Assembly: GCA_016278505.1 (NCBI GenBank)
Contig: JADQBQ010000019.1
Location: 5,098 to 69,097, forward strand
Reading direction: 5' to 3'
DNA length: 64,000 nt
Source of the DNA: Clostridiales bacterium
GTDB taxonomy: Bacteria > Bacillota > Desulfotomaculia > Desulfotomaculales > VENG01
Within the stretch, counting starts at the first letter, position 1; each line of letters begins with the position of its first letter. A program made the position numbers and the translations under genes. Of this stretch, positions 1,896-34,843 are shown piece after piece. Under the pieces are notes generated by a model. The model was not told the origin of the DNA and made no database searches. It worked only from the letters and a program-made list of their open reading frames with translations.

Positions 1896-2663
1896 GTGCC
1901 AGTGCTTAAGGCCGGTGATTATTCCACTGCCTGCAGAGCTATATTATTTGACAAAGACGGTACATTAATTGACTTTAAAAATATGTGGTTGGTATGGCTT
2001 GATTATATGTTTACTGCACTGCAGCAAGAATACCAACTAACAAAAAATATCATCAGGGATTTCGAAGAAGCTGTAGGGGTAAAATTAGATAAGCGGTGGG
2101 TAGCTTCCTCCGGAGTTATGGCCTCGGGCTGCATGGATAGTCTCAGGCGATCCATGGCTCAGTGTCTGACTGCCTACGGTGTGGACCCGGAGGAAGCTGT
2201 GAGTGGGTTCGATGTTATGGTTAAAACATCTGAAACCGAAGTGGATTGGCCCGCAATTACCCATTCCGTGCCGGGGCTGGAGCAATTTTTGTATAAATTA
2301 AAGGACCGGGGGATAAAAGTGGCGGTAACCACTGCCGACACTACCTCAAGGGCGGAAGATACATTATGTTCTCTGGGCCTGGCCTCTCATTTTGATGCCG
2401 TGGTAGGGGCCGACCGGGTAAGCAGTACAAAACCGGCACCGGATATGGCTTTATTGGCCTGTGAACTCCTCGATGTTCACCCTATGGATGCCGTGGTAGT
2501 GGGGGACAATATTACCGACATGCAAATGGGTAAAAGTGCCGGGGTGGCCGGGGTGATTGGAGTTTTAACAGGTGTTTGCCAGGTAAGGCAGCTGGAGGCT
2601 TTAGCCGATGCGGTGGTGGAATCCGTGGGCGAATTAAAACTTGAAGATGTGGAGCAGGGGTGA
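1896..2663 (+). CDS. HAD-superfamily hydrolase (phosphoglycolate-phosphatase-like)
   Basis: HAD motifs are present: FDKDGTLID, VTTADT, VVGDNITDM. I prefer the GTG at 1896, preceded by AGGAGGGG (1881-1888), over the listed start at 1842. Confidence 0.8.
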   Translation: MPVLKAGDYSTACRAILFDKDGTLIDFKNMWLVWLDYMFTALQQEYQLTKNIIRDFEEAVGVKLDKRWVASSGVMASGCMDSLRRSMAQCLTAYGVDPEEAVSGFDVMVKTSETEVDWPAITHSVPGLEQFLYKLKDRGIKVAVTTADTTSRAEDTLCSLGLASHFDAVVGADRVSSTKPAPDMALLACELLDVHPMDAVVVGDNITDMQMGKSAGVAGVIGVLTGVCQVRQLEALADAVVESVGELKLEDVEQG

Positions 2664-3570
2664 AAGGGTGGAGGAAAAAAGTGGCTGGCTGGAATTTAGG
2701 CTTTCCGGGGAAGACGAAGGAAGGCCGGTAGGCAACATTCTGCGTAGTAAATACGGTTTTTCCAGGGGAATGTTACGGAAGCTTAAACGCTGGCAGGGTG
2801 TAACGCTCAACGGTGAACCGGTAAGACTGAAAGACGGTGGCAGAGAAAATGATGTGATCAGGGTAACCTTGCGGCATAAGGAAGAAAGCTGGATTATGCC
2901 GCAAGATTTACCACTGGACGTACTTTACGAGGACGACGATTTACTCATAGTGGATAAAAAACCAGGAACATTGGTCCACCCTATGTCCTATGAGGACAGT
3001 GGAACTGTTGCCAATGCTGTTTTATACCGGTGGTCACAGCAGGGAATTGAAGCCCGGTTTCGCCCGGTATTCCGGCTCGATCGCCACACTTCCGGACTTT
3101 TAATGGTGGCTAAAAATAGTTTTGCCAATCATAGAATGGTGGAACAATTACACACACAAAACCTGCGCCGCCGCTATTTTGCGGTGGCGCAGGGGATAAT
3201 AGCTGAAGATGCGGGGGTACTGGATTATCCCATAGCCATGGATCCGGGCAGCGGCGGCAAAAGGACGGTCAGCCCGGACGGCAAGGTGGCTTTGACCAGG
3301 TTCCGGGTACTGGAGAGGTTTACCGGCCTCACTCTTTTATGTCTGGAGTTGGAGACCGGGCGTACTCACCAAATAAGGGTACACCTGTCACAAAAGGGTT
3401 TTCCCCTTTGTGGTGACACCTTATACGGAGGCGAAACAACGTTGATAGATAGGCAGGCTTTGCACTCGGCTGAGCTAAGGTTCCTGTCACCCCGCAGGGG
3501 CCAAGAAGTAACGGTTACCAGTACGATGCCCGGAGATATAAAGGATCTATTGTCACTGAAAAATAGGTGA
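2641..3570 (+). CDS. RluA/RluD-family pseudouridine synthase with N-terminal S4 domain
   Basis: S4-like N-terminus, catalytic region RLDRHTSGLLMVAK and HQIRVHL motif. The exact start is uncertain (overlaps the HAD gene end). Confidence 0.85.
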   Translation: MKMWSRGERVEEKSGWLEFRLSGEDEGRPVGNILRSKYGFSRGMLRKLKRWQGVTLNGEPVRLKDGGRENDVIRVTLRHKEESWIMPQDLPLDVLYEDDDLLIVDKKPGTLVHPMSYEDSGTVANAVLYRWSQQGIEARFRPVFRLDRHTSGLLMVAKNSFANHRMVEQLHTQNLRRRYFAVAQGIIAEDAGVLDYPIAMDPGSGGKRTVSPDGKVALTRFRVLERFTGLTLLCLELETGRTHQIRVHLSQKGFPLCGDTLYGGETTLIDRQALHSAELRFLSPRRGQEVTVTSTMPGDIKDLLSLKNR

Positions 3571-3575
3571 TCATG

Positions 3576-3863
3576 TTAAATCATCTGAATAATAATACTT
3601 GCGACAACCGCCGCGCTTAGCGTGAGGCAGAGTATGCCCATTCTTTGTTGCGTTTTTTCTATTTGTTCCACTTTGCCGGCCAGTTGATCTAACCGCTGGT
3701 ACACTTGCTGTTCTGTAGTGGTGCTTCTGGTATGCAGGTCCTCCCTGGTTTTTTCCAAAAGGGTTACAAACTTTGTTTCGGAAGGTTTGACCAGCTTTTG
3801 CTGTATGGAATCTGAAAGGGACTGCACCACGTCATGCACGCTGCACTGATCAGTTTGAGCCAT
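3576..3863 (-). CDS. small coiled-coil protein with C-terminal TM segment (tail-anchored type)
   Basis: ATG at 3863 with GGGGGC 7 nt upstream. Helical, heptad-like sequence ending in a hydrophobic stretch (MGILCLTLSAAVVASIIIQMI). Last gene of the dynamin-like operon. Confidence 0.5.
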   Translation of the reverse strand: MAQTDQCSVHDVVQSLSDSIQQKLVKPSETKFVTLLEKTREDLHTRSTTTEQQVYQRLDQLAGKVEQIEKTQQRMGILCLTLSAAVVASIIIQMI

Positions 3864-4134
3864 CTTCTTTGCCCCCATTGCTCTGGTTGATGGCATCCCG
3901 GATAGCAGATAAAACTGTTACCGGATTCTCTTCCAGTTTTTTTTCCAAGCGGTCCACTCTCTCTATTAACTCCTGCAGTATCTTATCATCTTTTTCGGTT
4001 TTTTGATTTATAGCCACGGCCAGACGTTTATTCTCGTTAACTAGAGGCTGAATGAATTTTTCTTTCAGTCCCAGCAATATCTCCGTTAAAAGCTGTTGTT
4101 TTGTTGTGTTCTCTGTGCTTTTGGGTAGGTTCAA
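3850..4134 (-). CDS. small coiled-coil protein (94 aa)
   Basis: TTG start at 4134 with AAAAGGGGGA upstream (rc of 4141-4150). Lys/Glu/Leu-rich helical sequence. No family recognised. Confidence 0.5.
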   Translation of the reverse strand: MNLPKSTENTTKQQLLTEILLGLKEKFIQPLVNENKRLAVAINQKTEKDDKILQELIERVDRLEKKLEENPVTVLSAIRDAINQSNGGKEDGSN

Positions 4135-4357: not shown

Positions 4358-7225
4358 TTACAACCCCCCCTGGATATTAAGTATTTTTTCAATATTGTAG
4401 ATGTCTGCAAGATACTCATTAAGCACTTTGCTTTCCTCTTTGGAAGGCTCTCTGCCGTAAGCTTCCTGTGCGGCCTGGGAGTGTTTTTCCACCGCTGACC
4501 TGATGCCGGGGGCGATCAGATCCCGTAGGTAAACCTCCATTTCATGTTGCCACCGGTTGCATTCTTCCCCTAGTTTCTTCTCCTGCTCGCTAAGTAATAT
4601 AGAAATTCTCTGTCTCGCTTCCTTAGCTTTGAAACCGCCGTAAAAATTTCTACTCTCAGTGATTGTTTCTTCCATTTGTTCCATGGCTGCAGCGGCAACA
4701 AGGCCTGGCGGGGAGGGGGGCAGGGCATAAGGATTAGTGGAGATTCCGGCTTGATGCAGCCAAGCTTCAACGGTTTTGTAAATAGCTTTTTGCCAGGTGC
4801 TGCAAATAATTTGAGTCTTACGGTTTAATGCATTTATCCACCTGAAGTAAGATATGCTGCTAATATGTGTGACCGCTTGCCCCTGCTGCTCCGGGGTCCC
4901 CCAGGCAAATGTCTTAAAGTGTTTGGGTTGTTTTAACCGTTCAGTTTGCCCCAAAATAATGTTAAACCTGGAATTAATTTCATCTTTTATTTCTGATACT
5001 GCCTGTGTGAGCGTGACGCAACCAGAGAATTTTACCGGGAGAGGGTTAGTTTTACCTTTCTTAATAACAGGTTGTGGTGTAGTTGCTGATTCCAGTATTG
5101 TACGCAAGTTCCGTAAATGGTTTTTTAGATAATCCCTTCCCCGGTAATTCCAAACCGCTAAGTGTATTTGGTCCAGCAGTTTTTGAAAACTCCCGTTATC
5201 TTTACCCTGCAGGGCCTTCAGCGGTGAAATAAGAAATATTTTAATGTTGGAGACGTTAATACCGTTTTGCTTCATTGTTTGCATGATGCTTCTGCGTAAA
5301 AAGTTTCTGGCTTTTTCCCTTTCATTAGGGGTAAGAGTATCAGCAAAATTTATGACAAAGAAAAATTTGGCCAACTCATATTGTGCCGCAGTGGCTTCGC
5401 CGGTGTGAAGATAGTCTTTAAGCCGCAATTTAAACATTTCCAAAAGGGAAAGGGAGTCGTGTTTGGTTAGTATGTGTTTGCCGTTTAAAAAAAACAGATA
5501 AGCATCACTGTGCTGCAAAAAGTCAGTGGTCATGGCGCTGTGATGTTGATTGGTGGAATCTAATCCAGGTGTGTCCACAAAGGTGGCCAATTGGAAAAAA
5601 AGTGCCGGGTGGGAAATGGTGATATCTCTTATGCGCAAGGCTTCCCGGGAAGTAGTCACACTTTTATACTCTTTTCTGCCCGGGGTAGTTTCCAGGTTTA
5701 ATTCTAAAGATGGCATTGGCCCAAAGACCAGGTCCACGGTCCATACGGGTGACATTGCCTTCGCTTTCCAGGCCGCAATAGGCCGAAACAGTGCACCCGC
5801 TTCCCGGTTATCCAATGTACCGCTGCGAAAGCCGGATGTAAATAATTTTTTGGTGCGCCATATTTCTTCCAGCAGCTTTTCCCGGGACACCTTTACAAAT
5901 CCCTTTCCGGTATCTAACCGCGTTTCTAAAATTCGCCGCAGGCTGGAGTCATAGTTCAGCCATTCCTCTAATGCTTGTATTTCTTCTTGGTTTATGATTA
6001 CGTTAAGGCCTTGATAGGCACAGATTTTAAGACTTAGCCGCGGTTTAAAGGTGATGGTTGCCATTCGCGTTCTGCCATGTTTAAGGTAAGTAATGCTGCT
6101 GGTGGTAGGCCGGTTTTCTGCCGGCAGTAAATTTTCTCCCATGATAGCGTTAAACAATGTACTTTTGCCCGATGAAAAACCTCCTACTGCAACTACTTTG
6201 AATTCTTCACGCTGTAATACACCTGCCCAATGGCCAATTTCCCGTGGAGATATAATTTGTTTTAACCTGGTATCGTGCATCATCTTAGAGGCTAATTGGA
6301 ACATTTTTTCTTTTATGCCGGGAATGTCTGCATATTTTCTACGGTTTGCGTCCTGTGCATAATTTATGCTGCCCGGCAGTACGTGAATATTATGGTTTTC
6401 CTCCAGCAAGTTTCTAACTTGCCCTTCCACCCCGGGTAAGTTGCTCAAGACATTTCTGGTCAGCATGATTTTTTTAGCTTGATCTTTAATGTCCCAAAAA
6501 TTATCAAGGAAAAGCATATCGTCCTGAATTAGAAGACTTTTATGGATGCGGGCGGGTATCTTTTCATCGATTTTTTTGTGCTTGGCATCAAGTTTCCTAA
6601 CCATATCCTTAGAAATCATTATTTCCAGGTAATGACGGACAGTGCTGACACTTTCAGGGACGCGGCTGTTAATTAGATAAATCTCCGGTGAATGGCGAAA
6701 AATGTTCCTTAACACCTGCTCCGTATTTGATAGGGAAGTACCGTCGCTTTTACCCAGGTTGCAGTTGATCCAGAAGGAAATGTCACGGTACTCTATTTTT
6801 CGTTTCTTGGCCAGAGTGGTGAGAAAGTGTTTGTTTAATTCGTCTATTCCCCGCTGGTGGAAAAGGTATATTATTTTATCCGCCTGCAGCGCAAGCTTTT
6901 CCAGTTCCGTGATATTAGATGCTGTAGAGTCTATACCAGGAGTATCTACCAGGGTGAATTTTTTCAACAGCGGGTGGTTAAGCGCTACTTCTACCTGATC
7001 AAATTTTACCGATGTTTTACCGTTTATAAAGGAAAGGAATTGTCCCTTGGTTGGGAAGTAAAGGGACTTGCCACTACCGCTCGTCCGTGCAGCGAATTTC
7101 TCTCCGTACTTTAGATAGAAAAAAGATGATGTTTTGGGCAGGCTGTCTTCCGGGCATAGTTGATCGTCAATTAAACTGTTTATTAAAGTAGATTTACCGG
7201 TGTTAAAGGAACCCATGACGGCCAC
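4358..7225 (-). CDS. bacterial dynamin-like protein with two GTPase modules
   Basis: Two P-loops (GSFNTGKST at aa 5-13, GGFSSGKST at aa 348-356), each followed by a DTPG motif (LVDTPGIDS, FVDTPGLDS). Long helical regions. The real start probably lies upstream of 7225 (see findings). Confidence 0.8.
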   Translation of the reverse strand: MAVMGSFNTGKSTLINSLIDDQLCPEDSLPKTSSFFYLKYGEKFAARTSGSGKSLYFPTKGQFLSFINGKTSVKFDQVEVALNHPLLKKFTLVDTPGIDSTASNITELEKLALQADKIIYLFHQRGIDELNKHFLTTLAKKRKIEYRDISFWINCNLGKSDGTSLSNTEQVLRNIFRHSPEIYLINSRVPESVSTVRHYLEIMISKDMVRKLDAKHKKIDEKIPARIHKSLLIQDDMLFLDNFWDIKDQAKKIMLTRNVLSNLPGVEGQVRNLLEENHNIHVLPGSINYAQDANRRKYADIPGIKEKMFQLASKMMHDTRLKQIISPREIGHWAGVLQREEFKVVAVGGFSSGKSTLFNAIMGENLLPAENRPTTSSITYLKHGRTRMATITFKPRLSLKICAYQGLNVIINQEEIQALEEWLNYDSSLRRILETRLDTGKGFVKVSREKLLEEIWRTKKLFTSGFRSGTLDNREAGALFRPIAAWKAKAMSPVWTVDLVFGPMPSLELNLETTPGRKEYKSVTTSREALRIRDITISHPALFFQLATFVDTPGLDSTNQHHSAMTTDFLQHSDAYLFFLNGKHILTKHDSLSLLEMFKLRLKDYLHTGEATAAQYELAKFFFVINFADTLTPNEREKARNFLRRSIMQTMKQNGINVSNIKIFLISPLKALQGKDNGSFQKLLDQIHLAVWNYRGRDYLKNHLRNLRTILESATTPQPVIKKGKTNPLPVKFSGCVTLTQAVSEIKDEINSRFNIILGQTERLKQPKHFKTFAWGTPEQQGQAVTHISSISYFRWINALNRKTQIICSTWQKAIYKTVEAWLHQAGISTNPYALPPSPPGLVAAAAMEQMEETITESRNFYGGFKAKEARQRISILLSEQEKKLGEECNRWQHEMEVYLRDLIAPGIRSAVEKHSQAAQEAYGREPSKEESKVLNEYLADIYNIEKILNIQGGL

Positions 7226-7526: not shown

Positions 7527-8183
7527 ATGGTTAAACAACAAGAAAATACCCAGGTGCAAATAGTTGTAGACGGAATGACCGGCGTGGGGAAGACAACTCT
7601 GGTCAATGTATTGGCTGAAGAAATGGATTTGGTTTCTTTTACGGAAATATTTGAGGATGAAAATGACCTCTTACATAAGTTTTTTCACGATAGGGAACGC
7701 TGGTGTTTTCCCATGCAGATTAATTTTTTAAACCACAGGTTTCGCCAGTATAAAGAGGCCACGGAAAAGAATTGTGCTATTATGGACCGATCAATTTATT
7801 CGGATAATATATTTGCTCGTATGTACAAGGAAATAGGTTATATGACCGTAGAGGAGTATAATGTTTACCACAGTTTATTGTATAACATGCTGGAAAGCCT
7901 GGAACCGCCGCGCTTAATAATTTACCTGAGCGTCGACGCTAAAGAAGCCATTAGGCGGATCAAAAAAAGAGGGCGTAAAGACGAGCTGGAAGTGGAAGAA
8001 GGGTATTGGCGCAAGCTTCACCGCTTCTATGAGGAGCAGTACCGCAACTATAAAATGGGGAACCTTCTAGTTATTAATGCCAATGATCTTGACTTTGTAA
8101 AATATAATGATCACAGGAAGCAAATATTGAACACGGTAAAGCATAAGTGGGAAGCAATCAATGAGGCTGCAGTTGCGAGGTAA
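7527..8183 (+). CDS. deoxynucleoside kinase (dAK/dGK family)
   Basis: P-loop VDGMTGVGKTTL, DRS motif (MDRSIYSD) and an Arg-rich lid (RIKKRGRKDE). RBS GAGGAG upstream of the ATG. Confidence 0.85.
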   Translation: MVKQQENTQVQIVVDGMTGVGKTTLVNVLAEEMDLVSFTEIFEDENDLLHKFFHDRERWCFPMQINFLNHRFRQYKEATEKNCAIMDRSIYSDNIFARMYKEIGYMTVEEYNVYHSLLYNMLESLEPPRLIIYLSVDAKEAIRRIKKRGRKDELEVEEGYWRKLHRFYEEQYRNYKMGNLLVINANDLDFVKYNDHRKQILNTVKHKWEAINEAAVAR

Positions 8184-8196
8184 AAAACGAACTGAT

Positions 8197-8412
8197 GACA
8201 AACCTGTCTTTTGCGCATAGCGAATGAATTGAATCGAGCCGTTGCCAGGCTTGGCGAAGTCGATAAGCGGAAGCGGGACCGAGCACAGGACGTGCGAGGC
8301 CGCCCCTTGAGCCATGGATGGCGATTGGGGCGGGAATCCCGCTGGAGCGTGAGACTGAGCCTTAGCCTGGCGCGGCGAGATGAATTGAATGAGCGGGCGC
8401 AAAAGGCAGGTT
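8197..8412 (+). ncRNA. unclassified structured repeat element, copy 1 (candidate ncRNA or RNA-structured repeat)
   Basis: About 90% identical by eye to 34482-34695. It has a 16-bp closing helix (8201-8216 with 8397-8412) and several internal helices. Differences between the copies are compensatory. It lies in non-coding DNA. Confidence 0.45.
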
Positions 8413-8436
8413 CAGCGCTAAGCTTAGCTTACAACC

Positions 8437-8463
8437 GGCGGGGGGAGTTGCCCCGTCTTTTTT
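8437..8463 (+). terminator. intrinsic terminator
   Basis: GGCGGGG-loop7-CCCCGTC followed by TTTTTT. Confidence 0.6.
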
Positions 8464-27316: not shown

Positions 27317-27988
27317 GTGGAGACAATTCAATTGGAAGCAGATCCGGTATTAAGCGAATTGGAAAAAATGATTATCAGGGAAGCAGGCTCCACTGTACAT
27401 TATCCAAAGGGACAAGTTATTTTTGCTGCCGGTGACATATCCGACCGAGTTTTATTAATAGAAAGTGGATGGGTAAAAATCTTTCGGCTTTCGGCAGACG
27501 GTAAGAGGGTTACTGTAGGGCGCATGCGTAGTCCCGGAGAAATGATGGCATTAGCGGAGACACTTTTGGAAGTGGAGCGCACATGTTTTGCAGGAGCCAT
27601 AAGTGATGTAACCATGGTTGTGTTACGAAAGACCCAGTTTGAGGAATTGATGGCCAAGCACCCATTTTTGGGTATTAAAGTATCCAAATTGTTAGCGGTG
27701 AGAATGCGCGAGGCTGAGGGAATAATACATGAGATGGTTTGTTGGCAGGCGCCCGGCAGGTTAGCTTTAATGTTAATGAAAATGGGTGACCGCTGTGGCA
27801 AAGAGACCAAGAACGGTATCATCTTGGACGTGCAGCTCACGCACGAAGAGATTGCCAGTATGGTCGGTACCTCGCGCCAGACTGTAACTTCTTTGTTGAA
27901 TACGTTTAAACAGGAAAAAAGCATTGCCTACGAAGGTAGAGCAATACGTATAGTAGACCCTGATAAATTGGGTAAGTGGGTAGTATAA
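27317..27988 (+). CDS. Crp/Fnr-family transcriptional regulator
   Basis: cNMP-binding domain plus a C-terminal HTH (THEEIASMVGTSRQTVTSLLN). Size 223 aa. Confidence 0.85.
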   Translation: METIQLEADPVLSELEKMIIREAGSTVHYPKGQVIFAAGDISDRVLLIESGWVKIFRLSADGKRVTVGRMRSPGEMMALAETLLEVERTCFAGAISDVTMVVLRKTQFEELMAKHPFLGIKVSKLLAVRMREAEGIIHEMVCWQAPGRLALMLMKMGDRCGKETKNGIILDVQLTHEEIASMVGTSRQTVTSLLNTFKQEKSIAYEGRAIRIVDPDKLGKWVV

Positions 27989-28169: not shown

Positions 28170-28550
28170 ATGAAAGCTAATTTAAAGGTAGTGGAATTGA
28201 AAGAATTTGAAAAAGAAATAATCCGTCAAGCCGGTAATTTGGTGAGTATACGCCGGGGAAGCAACCTTTTTGCTGCCGGAGAAACGGCGAACCGTGTGTT
28301 TCTGGTGGAAAAAGGTTGGCTAAAAATTTGCCGTGTCAATCCGGAAGGTGAACATATAGCGAAAGGAAATTTGCATGGGCCAGGAGATTTGTTGGGGGTA
28401 GCCGAAGCGTTATGGGGTGAGCATCATAAGTATGGTGCGCATGGTGTCACCGATGGCCTGATAAGTGTTTTGTCCCGTAAAGCATTTTTGGAACTATTGG
28501 ATACGGAACCATTTCTGGCTGTTAAATTATCCAAAACGGTAGTCTTATAA
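28170..28550 (+). CDS. Crp/Fnr paralog truncated after the cNMP-binding domain (no HTH)
   Basis: Aligns with aa 1-125 of the neighbouring 223-aa regulator, then stops. No HTH-like sequence follows in any frame. Confidence 0.6.
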   Translation: MKANLKVVELKEFEKEIIRQAGNLVSIRRGSNLFAAGETANRVFLVEKGWLKICRVNPEGEHIAKGNLHGPGDLLGVAEALWGEHHKYGAHGVTDGLISVLSRKAFLELLDTEPFLAVKLSKTVVL

Positions 28551-33963: not shown

Positions 33964-34455
33964 TTGACTCAAATATATGCACCGGATTTTGTCGGTAAGT
34001 CGGACCAGGCTGTTGTATTTCTGGTTTCTTCTTTAAATGAGGAATTGAAAAGTGTTATGGAGCGTGTTCACCGTGGAGAACAGGTTGTTTACCGTTTTGA
34101 GTGGAACCTTGCCAAAGACAGTGAACAAAAGGATATGATAGTATTTGCTTTGGAGTTTGCCGATGAGAATAATGTTTCTATTGGATTGGCACCACAATAT
34201 TGGGAATGTTTACCCTCAGTTATTTCCCTCGGCTTAATCGTTATTATGACCGACCCCGGCCTGATCAATGAAGAAAACCGGGCGGCGGTGGGTGAAGAGC
34301 CCAGGGCATTAGTCATCCACAGTGCTTTTAATGGCCTCGATGGATTAGCCGAACAGGCTAACCAGCGCTTACAGGCTGGAGAGAGAGGGAACTTAGACTT
34401 TTTACTCAGACTACTTTCCGAAGGGGCTGAGTCGGATGAAAAACCGCACCACTAA
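33964..34455 (+). CDS. hypothetical protein (163 aa)
   Basis: TTG start with GGAAGGAG upstream. No family recognised. Confidence 0.5.
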   Translation: MTQIYAPDFVGKSDQAVVFLVSSLNEELKSVMERVHRGEQVVYRFEWNLAKDSEQKDMIVFALEFADENNVSIGLAPQYWECLPSVISLGLIVIMTDPGLINEENRAAVGEEPRALVIHSAFNGLDGLAEQANQRLQAGERGNLDFLLRLLSEGAESDEKPHH

Positions 34456-34481
34456 ATAGTGTGTTACTAAGATAGAATACC

Positions 34482-34695
34482 GACAAACCTGTCTTTTGTG
34501 CAGAGCGAATGAATTGAATCGAGCAACTGCCAGGCTTAGCGAAGTCGATAAGCGGAAGCGGGACCGAGCACAGGACGTGCGAGGCTGCCCCTTGAGCCAG
34601 GACGGCGAATGGGGCAGGAATCCCGCTGGAGCGTGAGACTGAGCCTTAGCCTGGCCTGCGAGATGAAATGAATGAGCGGGCGCAAAAGACAGGTT
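34482..34695 (+). ncRNA. unclassified structured repeat element, copy 2
   Basis: Paralog of 8197-8412 with the same helices and compensatory changes. A TAGAAT box at 34473-34478 lies just upstream. Confidence 0.45.
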
Positions 34696-34722
34696 AGCTG
34701 CACAGTTATGGTTAATAACCGG

Positions 34723-34758
34723 GCGGCACCACTATAGATAGTGGTGCCGCTTTAGTTT
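34723..34758 (+). terminator. intrinsic terminator
   Basis: GCGGCACCAC-loop8-GTGGTGCCGC followed by TTTAGTTT. Confidence 0.6.
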
Positions 34759-34843
34759 GAGGTATTAATTTTCTCCAATGTGATAAATTATTAGTTGTTG
34801 CAAGTGACGGCATAATTCTAAGTATTAATTGGAGACGTAACAA

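Follow-up and report, generated by a model that had tools for sequence, protein, structure and literature searches.

The 64,000-nucleotide (nt) stretch of DNA analysed here (the window; positions 5,098 to 69,097 of contig JADQBQ010000019.1, assembly GCA_016278505.1) comes from an uncultured metagenome-assembled genome (MAG) of the class Clostridia, whose flanking proteins are nearest to those of Peptococcaceae and Heliobacteriaceae, and harbours two copies of a structured element of about 215 nt in the same orientation: copy 1 (8197-8412) and copy 2 (34482-34695). Copy 1 starts 14 nt after the stop codon of the plus strand dNK (deoxynucleoside kinase) coding sequence (CDS; 7527-8183); copy 2 starts 27 nt after the stop codon of a plus strand open reading frame (ORF) of 163 amino acids (aa; 33964-34455). 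A hairpin followed by a T-run lies 24-26 nt downstream of each copy (8437-8457 and 34722-34751). The window is otherwise ordinary chromosome, and no transposase, integrase, flagellar gene or csrA was found in its 64 kb. As detailed below, sequence and structure models assign the element to the TwoAYGGAY RNA family (RF01731, clan CL00106), as a divergent member that is missed by the Rfam model.

Across 216 alignment columns, the two copies are about 93% identical, differing by 13 substitutions and two single-base indels. A previous inspection of the letters and ORFs of the window (the sequence-only reading) had matched 8197-8412 to 34482-34695, each 3' of a plus strand CDS and followed by a stem-loop plus T-run; alignment, repeat searches and a terminator scan bear this out, its count of roughly 20 differences being an overestimate. 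The core 28-mer occurs exactly twice in the window, compared with none expected (100 shuffles), and the pair of copies was also recovered by a repeat search.

The sequence-only reading had left the element unclassified. No Rfam family matched at the gathering score anywhere in the 64-kb window; below that score, copy 1 gave a full-length model match to TwoAYGGAY (8229-8385, 22.3 bits, E 0.5, cut-off 43), and copy 2 gave none. Other weak Rfam matches (Acido-Lenti-1, COG3860, snoR110, rli43) were partial, with E values of at least 1.5, and were taken as chance. An apex pattern (CACAGGACGTG-N(8-38)-GCCA-N(0-1)-GGAYGGC) was scanned against one genome per species; the loci fetched from pattern scans and flank searches are designated by L numbers (L010, L028 etc.). 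The scan yielded more than 107 loci in four groups: coding false positives, MoeA-like by eye (CDS reading ...AQDV...SAMDGY), which were rejected; Pseudomonas loci that Rfam calls rsmX; Bacillaceae-1 (Rfam); and many elements composed of a long rod and two hairpins, frequently with many copies in one genome. The hosts of this last group include Desulfosporosinus, Desulfitobacterium, Clostridium, Clostridiaceae, Lachnospiraceae, Ruminococcus, Vallitaleaceae, Synergistaceae, Leptospiraceae and several Gammaproteobacteria. TwoAYGGAY matches above the Rfam cut-off were present in 9 of 18 tested loci (43.0-117.8 bits), and the hairpin form CACAGGACGUG was found in the cut-off-passing loci L028, L010 and L051 (96-118 bits).

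The models matched in both directions. A model built from the two window copies only (R1) produced 81 matches, full-length in the Rfam-certified loci L028 (38 bits), L010 (35.7) and L051 (29.3), and scored the Desulfosporosinus-type elements at 60-116 bits. A second model (R2) drew on 15 sequences from outside the window, aligned with R1 and including eight that overlap Rfam-certified matches; it scored copy 1 at 194 bits and copy 2 at 176.4 bits (271.9 and 251.5 bits with R1 itself). In a plain MAFFT alignment with 25 Desulfosporosinus/Desulfitobacterium-type elements the window copies align end to end, the common landmarks being AGCGA, CCAAAC/CCAGGC, the apex, UUAG and GAGCG. The exact core pattern had no match in JGI metagenome contigs, a collection that apparently does not include the source samples; a looser core pattern retrieved 20 Desulfosporosinus-type loci. 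It is because of R1, R2, the sub-threshold Rfam match and the MAFFT alignment that we file the element under TwoAYGGAY.

The spurious plus strand ORF of copy 1, once translated, led to a third copy (copy 3; L149 4006-4220, R1 229.8 bits), located directly behind rho in a sibling sample (JGI 3300032098). The possibility that the element encodes a small protein was discarded: the ORFs of copy 1 (84 aa on the plus strand, 111 aa on the minus strand) are broken in copy 2 by frame-shifting indels, the 84-aa ORF has a single database "homologue", itself a spurious gene call on copy 3, and copy 2 contains no ORF of 60 aa or more. The indels had already been read as arguing against a conserved ORF.

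The plus strand of copy 1 folds at -119.7 kcal/mol (z -10.5) and that of copy 2 at -108.2 kcal/mol (z -9.5); the minus strand of copy 1 folds more weakly (-95.0 kcal/mol). In the plus strand RNA, about 70 nested pairs build a rod whose internal loops are almost all tandem G.A pairs; the three-way junction at its tip bears two short hairpins with A(N)GGA loops (the GGA hairpins). The element ends in 16-nt inverted repeats, AACCTGTCTTTTGCGC and its complement, which constitute the base of the rod: in the minimum free energy (MFE) fold, 8201-8216 pairs with 8397-8412 (the latter arm also found by the inverted-repeat search) in a 16-bp closing helix that is the longest perfect helix of the rod. 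This helix had been proposed from the sequence together with several inner helices, and all are present in the MFE fold. Above it lie the two purine-rich repeats (GCGAAUGAAUUGAAUCGAGCC at 8220-8240, and 8374-8394), formerly considered unable to pair with each other; in fact they face each other as tandem G.A pairs, four GA dinucleotides of one strand standing opposite four of the other in GA/GA internal loops. In the MFE fold of copy 2, all internal loops of the purine-repeat region are symmetric GA/GA loops, four of them consecutive and 2-3 pairs apart. A 5'-GA-3' opposite a 5'-GA-3' is the classical tandem sheared G.A motif. Further loops of this type are seen nearer the tip of the rod, within the hairpin 1 stem and, in the form UUGA/GAUU, in hairpin 2; the window copies contain 4-6 strict GA/GA loops and 7-9 loops with GA on both sides.

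Further up the rod, the helix formed by GCCAGGCU (8244-8251) and AGCCUGGC (8364-8371), with a UUAG motif on its 3' side (8362-8365), is present in the MFE fold and in the RNAalifold consensus (columns 54-60/189-195, with G-C to A-U double changes). It is followed by a symmetric GGA/GGA internal loop (8269-8271 and 8344-8346 in the loop listing of the MFE fold) and by the junction-closing helix AGCGGGA (8272-8278, pairing with 8337-8343), found in the MFE fold, by covariation and by RNAalifold. Hairpin 1 of copy 1 (8279-8299; CC-GA-GCAC-AGGAC-GUGC-GA-GG) carries its GGA at 8288-8290 and a tandem G.A in its stem, and hairpin 2 (8300-8333; CCGCCCC-UUGA-GCC-AUGGAU-GGC-GAUU-GGGGCGG), also covered by the Rfam match, carries its GGA at 8316-8318. 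According to the MFE fold and the alignment, hairpin 1 of copy 2 (34564-34584, GGA 34573-34575) is the same, and hairpin 2 (34585-34617, GGA 34600-34602) has the loop AGGAC instead of AUGGAU.

Among the three close copies, the paired positions vary in a partly compensatory manner: pair 8207/8406 is U.G, U-A and C-G in copies 1, 2 and 3, respectively; pair 8214/8399 is C-G, U.G and C-G; and in copy 2, C8301-G8332 of hairpin 2 becomes U-A, C8240-G8374 becomes A-U, and U8229.U8385 becomes U-A. Copy 3 has two A-U pairs in place of one GA/GA loop (G8236.A8378 and A8237.G8377). The last change and that of U8229.U8385 support the G.A register. Altogether there are three double-compensated events, four pair-preserving single changes and five pair-breaking changes. 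The four pair changes reported between the window copies by the sequence-only reading (U8207.G8406, C8214-G8399, C8301-G8332 and C8240-G8374) are correct by alignment; that reading had also counted many copies with random variation against a structured RNA, and what is found is more than two copies, with variation that is partly compensatory.

Conservation of the structure extends to the distant relatives. In the model-fitted alignment of 81 sequences, 92.1% of the cells are standard pairs (58.7% when shuffled, 36-42% when the partners are slid), and 71 of 73 pairs have changes on both sides. RNAalifold applied to a sequence-only MAFFT alignment finds the junction again, along with the two hairpins and a single helix of the rod; 19 of the 30 consensus pairs show double changes. 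GA/GA is the commonest internal loop of the family (86 cases, compared with 26 for the next), and the GA/GA loops together with the GGA loops mark one strand. The apex is conserved from Clostridia to Gammaproteobacteria; the rod sequence varies freely.

The history of both sites could be followed in a sister MAG (GCA_009711705.1, contig VENG01000008.1), whose flanks are 93-98% identical at the nucleotide level and show the same gene order: it lacks both copies and retains both terminators. Its dNK site reads TAA-ATAAAAAA-GGGGGACTGTCCCCC-TTTTTT, a bidirectional-type terminator, and at its second site the last codons of the 163-aa ORF are the 5' arm of AAAAACCGCACCACTGAATTTCAGTGGTGCGGTTTT. Both sites are also empty in further, more distant relatives. 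Since the sister genome is empty at both sites and keeps the terminators, the comparison identifies both copies as recent insertions next to pre-existing terminators that belong to the host. The intrinsic terminators of dNK (8437-8463; terminator scan, with a homologous hairpin and T-run at the empty sites L146 and L145) and of ORF 33964-34455 (34722-34759; homologous hairpin at the empty site) are therefore host features, and not the element's own as previously supposed. Of the two natures earlier proposed for the element, a structured non-coding RNA or an RNA-structured mobile repeat, the covariation and the empty sites favour the mobile repeat.

Both inserts lie between an A-run and the terminator stem. 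The empty-site alignment places the left junction of copy 1 at 8184-8196, where the ancestral terminator A-run is followed by CGAACTGAT, and its insert has a 3' tail (8413-8436, ending in AACCGG(G)C) that is about 60% alike between copies 1 and 2 and absent in copy 3. To the left of copy 2, alignment with the empty sites L140 and L141 reveals a degenerate duplicate of the terminator hairpin (34444-34463; CCGCACCACT-AAAT-AGTGTG) overlapping the last codons of ORF 33964-34455; the duplicate is roughly 20 nt long, and copies 1 and 3 have none that is convincing. Behind rho, the order is stop codon, A-run, element, 12 nt and terminator. All three copies are in the sense orientation of the upstream gene, the sequences to their left being unrelated except for TGAT in copies 1 and 3, and contigs of other samples end inside the element, as they do at repeats. 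At about 7%, the divergence between the window copies exceeds that between the flanks of the two genomes, which suggests that the two copies stem from different source copies.

Some details of these sites were also recorded. ORF 33964-34455 ends in the codons K P H H stop (34440-34455, L140 ~2840-2875), which serve as the terminator 5' arm in the sister genome; in the window they were kept after the insertion, alongside a second complete hairpin. Copies 1 and 3 start with TGATGAC, which contains two in-line TGA triplets; copy 2 does not. A phage or plasmid origin was discarded, as blastn gave no match in phage or plasmid collections (a viral-contig scan gave one hit). In relatives of another lineage with a 90% identical dNK (L131 3658-4245, also L132 and L133), the dNK/PEP-utilizers_C intergenic site is occupied by an insert of 588 nt, unrelated to the element, in which TTTTYCAAGGTAGAC and CACCGGGGCGC each occur twice as internal direct repeats; it was rejected as a relative of the element (no R1 match, no Rfam match, fold z -1.07).

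The apex hairpins provide the clue to function. The two GGA motifs of copy 1 lie 28 nt apart, on stems of 3-4 bp, hairpin 1 reading GCACAGGACGUGC, and the hairpin pair is also present in the Pseudomonas loci annotated by Rfam as rsmX, which belongs to the same clan. The CsrA consensus obtained by SELEX is RUACARGGAUGU, with ACA, GGA and GU conserved; the GGA is placed in a hairpin loop on a stem of no more than four pairs, and one CsrA dimer can bridge sites 10-63 nt apart (PMC7652899). TwoAYGGAY was proposed by Gardner and Eldai as a CsrA-binding small RNA (sRNA) of Clostridia (PMC4333381). From the fit of the apex hairpins to the CsrA/RsmA site, the likeness to rsmX and this proposal, we infer that the two hairpins would bind one CsrA dimer; CsrA binding is our best guess at a function. 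The element is predicted to be transcribed as part of the 3' untranslated region (UTR) of the upstream gene, because it lies in sense between stop codon and host terminator and no sigma-70-like promoter site was found upstream of copies 1 and 2. The 16-bp closing helix may permit an RNase III-type release of an RNA of about 215 nt, the G.A-studded rod would act as a stable, nuclease-resistant stalk, and the element may either act as a decoy for CsrA or give CsrA a handle on the host mRNA.

The reading that we prefer, with confidence evenly balanced for and against it, is that of a dispersed TwoAYGGAY repeat, recently inserted before host terminators and carried in 3' UTRs as a CsrA decoy or handle. 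A number of results weigh against it. The family assignment has to reckon with the score of copy 1 (22.3 bits for a cut-off of 43) and with the failure of copy 2 to match TwoAYGGAY up to E 10, and the covariation counts (71 of 73 pairs, 92.1%) come from a structure-fitted alignment that is biased toward the structure. Of the 12 pairs that vary among the three close copies, five are broken. The rod pairs show no excess of G.U (110) over A.C (89), which is unusual for a purely RNA-level constraint; as a test of strand this wobble-pair comparison was uninformative. In other lineages, members of the family show no regular placement ahead of terminators. With respect to function, CsrA binding is a prediction for every TwoAYGGAY RNA; a search of the window and of about 150 fetched loci turned up neither csrA nor a flagellin gene; and the element offers just two hairpin GGA sites and one GGA/GGA internal loop, when classical sponges have many.

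The same data can be accommodated by a selfish, non-autonomous DNA repeat resembling a miniature inverted-repeat transposable element (MITE) with no RNA function of its own, whose rod would be the inverted ends and whose apex would be read by a mobilising enzyme, perhaps on a single-strand DNA hairpin. We regard this as possible, if somewhat unlikely. It would explain the presence and absence of both copies with respect to a sister genome 93-98% identical, the existence of at least three copies in the lineage, all at like sites, the assemblies that break at the element, the 16-nt terminal inverted repeats and the duplicated target hairpin flanking copy 2; it also agrees with the many copies elsewhere (at least eight in a Synergistaceae MAG and at least eight in a Clostridiaceae MAG) and with rods that are near-perfectly Watson-Crick paired and lack a bias of G.U over A.C. 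However, copies 1 and 3 have no clear target-site duplication, no transposase or integrase was found in the 64-kb window, and no longer element with the same ends appeared in the window or the fetched loci. In addition, the conservation of the apex reaches across phyla, unlike that of the rods, and the apex agrees with the sites of rsmX, a validated RsmA-binding RNA; the GA/GA and GGA loops are confined to one strand; and three double-compensated events occurred among three close copies. A DNA repeat of this kind would in any case be compatible with an RNA function, and in a bolder version of the preferred reading, which we consider unlikely, a mobile repeat seeking the 5' shoulder of intrinsic terminators would supply housekeeping genes such as dNK and rho with CsrA-decoy hairpins in their 3' UTRs.

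A further alternative, quite improbable in our judgement, is a CsrA-independent stability or termination module of the 3' UTR, comparable to REP/BIME or ERIC repeats, which would alter the half-life of the upstream mRNA, its rod blocking 3' exonucleases or being cut by RNase III. The sense position of all three copies between stop codon and terminator, the very stable stem (-108 to -120 kcal/mol) and the 16-bp closing helix speak in favour of such a module; but it leaves unexplained the two GGA hairpins, conserved between Clostridia and Gammaproteobacteria on top of a free rod, and family members elsewhere are not tied to gene ends. An independent, duplicated sRNA gene with its own promoter and terminator, the leading option of the sequence-only reading, is very improbable: the compact, strongly stabilised fold, the strong hairpin plus T-run 24-26 nt downstream of each copy and the Csr/Rsm sRNAs of the same Rfam clan, which are independent genes, speak for it, but the terminators are owned by dNK and ORF 33964-34455, as their presence at the empty sites indicates, the element starts 14 or 27 nt past a stop codon with no sigma-70-like promoter upstream, and the left flanks of the three copies show no relation beyond the TGAT of copies 1 and 3. 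A retron, a diversity-generating retroelement or a riboswitch was discarded given the position 3' of a gene, the lack of a reverse transcriptase and copy differences that are not A-specific.

The resemblance to the described TwoAYGGAY RNAs is extensive. Both have a junction bearing a pair of neighbouring terminal hairpins whose loops are of the (A)YGGAY type; the P1 stem of the family is "often very large" (supplement of PMC2864571, Weinberg et al. 2010), and about 70 nested pairs enclose the apex in the window copies; tandem G.A pairs, reported in TwoAYGGAY stems (PMC4333381), occur in the stems of the window copies; and both the family and the relatives of the window subfamily are found in Clostridia and Gammaproteobacteria. 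The window copies differ in their apex loops, three of the four being AGGAC, which lacks one base relative to AYGGAY, in the unusually dense tandem G.A run of their rod (6-9 GA-type loops), and in their recent terminator-adjacent insertion, which is not described for the family in the literature searched.

The Csr/Rsm sponges (rsmX RF02144, RsmY/Z, CsrB/C) belong to the same Rfam clan, and the hairpins of the rsmX loci L045, L037 and L103 are identical (CACAGGACGUG ... GCCAGGAUGGC); in both cases a short hairpin presents the GGA in its loop, and the 28-nt spacing falls within the 10-63 nt bridging range (PMC7652899). In contrast, the sponges are independent genes with their own promoter and terminator, neither of which was found for the window element; they carry several to about 20 GGA sites and no long closing rod, compared with two sites and a 70-bp rod here; and they are mainly found in Gammaproteobacteria, whereas the window element lies in the 3' UTRs of a Clostridia-class host. 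In Clostridia-class organisms the known CsrA antagonist is FliW.

Among mobile or repeated elements, the structured intergenic repeats that are co-transcribed with genes (REP/BIME, ERIC/IRU, Correia, BOX and RUP) are, like the window element, short, multi-copy, imperfect palindromes located between gene end and terminator; they vary between strains and fold as RNA. The window element is unlike them in sharing no sequence similarity and in having no known RAYT-like partner transposase, and they in turn are not known to carry an apex conserved between phyla. Group IIC introns are ribozymes of about 2 kb that encode a reverse transcriptase and insert after a terminator hairpin. The likeness is limited to target choice, a site defined by an intrinsic terminator hairpin; the window element is 215 nt long, lies before the hairpin and has no intron features (no Rfam hit).

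TwoAYGGAY was described in 2010 (PMC2864571) and has been a proposed CsrA-binding RNA of Clostridia since 2015 (PMC4333381), and a 2020 review listed the joint action of FliW and sRNAs on CsrA as an open question (PMC7652899). The present analysis adds a divergent subfamily missed by the Rfam model, a rod built on regularly spaced tandem G.A pairs, and filled and empty sites which indicate that such elements spread within species, landing between stop codon and terminator. If the link to CsrA is true, these repeats would make host mRNAs CsrA sponges or CsrA targets, and if the mobile-decoy reading is true, a Firmicute of the FliW type would possess a distributed, mRNA-borne RNA antagonist or recruiter of CsrA; if the link is false, the element would be one more structured intergenic repeat family. 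To our knowledge, an RNA antagonist of CsrA in Clostridia has been predicted, never shown. The host being an uncultured MAG, the case is more useful for guiding work in cultured carriers (Clostridium sporogenes, Desulfosporosinus).

Several related loci were seen alongside. In Desulfosporosinus, L096 (~2413-2700, minus strand), L102 (3690-4077, minus strand), L039, L050 and L056 contain 3-4 GGA hairpins within about 130 nt, in a CsrB-like arrangement (examples of these runs: GUCCAUGGAUGGAC, GCCAUGGACGGC, GGCACAGGACGUGCC and GCCAAGGAUGGC); the Rfam scan of L096, L102 and L039 gave no family at the cut-off. The Desulfosporosinus-type rods often occur in divergent pairs or clusters (L004, 2960-3157 minus and 3335-3558 plus; L117, 3369-3587 minus and 3654-3869 plus; several in L128; also L113, L116, L120, L123 and L126) and have ahead of them, on the same strand, C/T-rich heptad-like tracts, ~(CCGTTCT)n, and then CCAAGCCC. 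The versions from Xanthomonadales/Cellvibrionales (L012, L013, L021, L044, L067, L084 and L101) show a conserved palindrome, GGTTACTTTTCTTTG...CAAAGAAAAGTAACC, downstream of the apex. Tandem GGA-hairpin arrays were found in L105 (~6335-6720, with a period of about 100 nt), L017 (~350-520) and L110 (~530-830); their hosts are uncultured Gammaproteobacteria and other MAGs, and no Rfam family reached the cut-off in them. In L082 (5423-5546), the apex pattern lies on the strand opposite two adjacent Rfam Bacillaceae-1 hits, which fits the report that the reverse complement of Bacillaceae-1 carries CsrA-type motifs (PMC4333381). Elsewhere in the window, a 61-nt direct repeat (27420-27480 and 28267-28327, 70% identity) has its first unit inside a gene for a Crp-family regulator (27317-27988).

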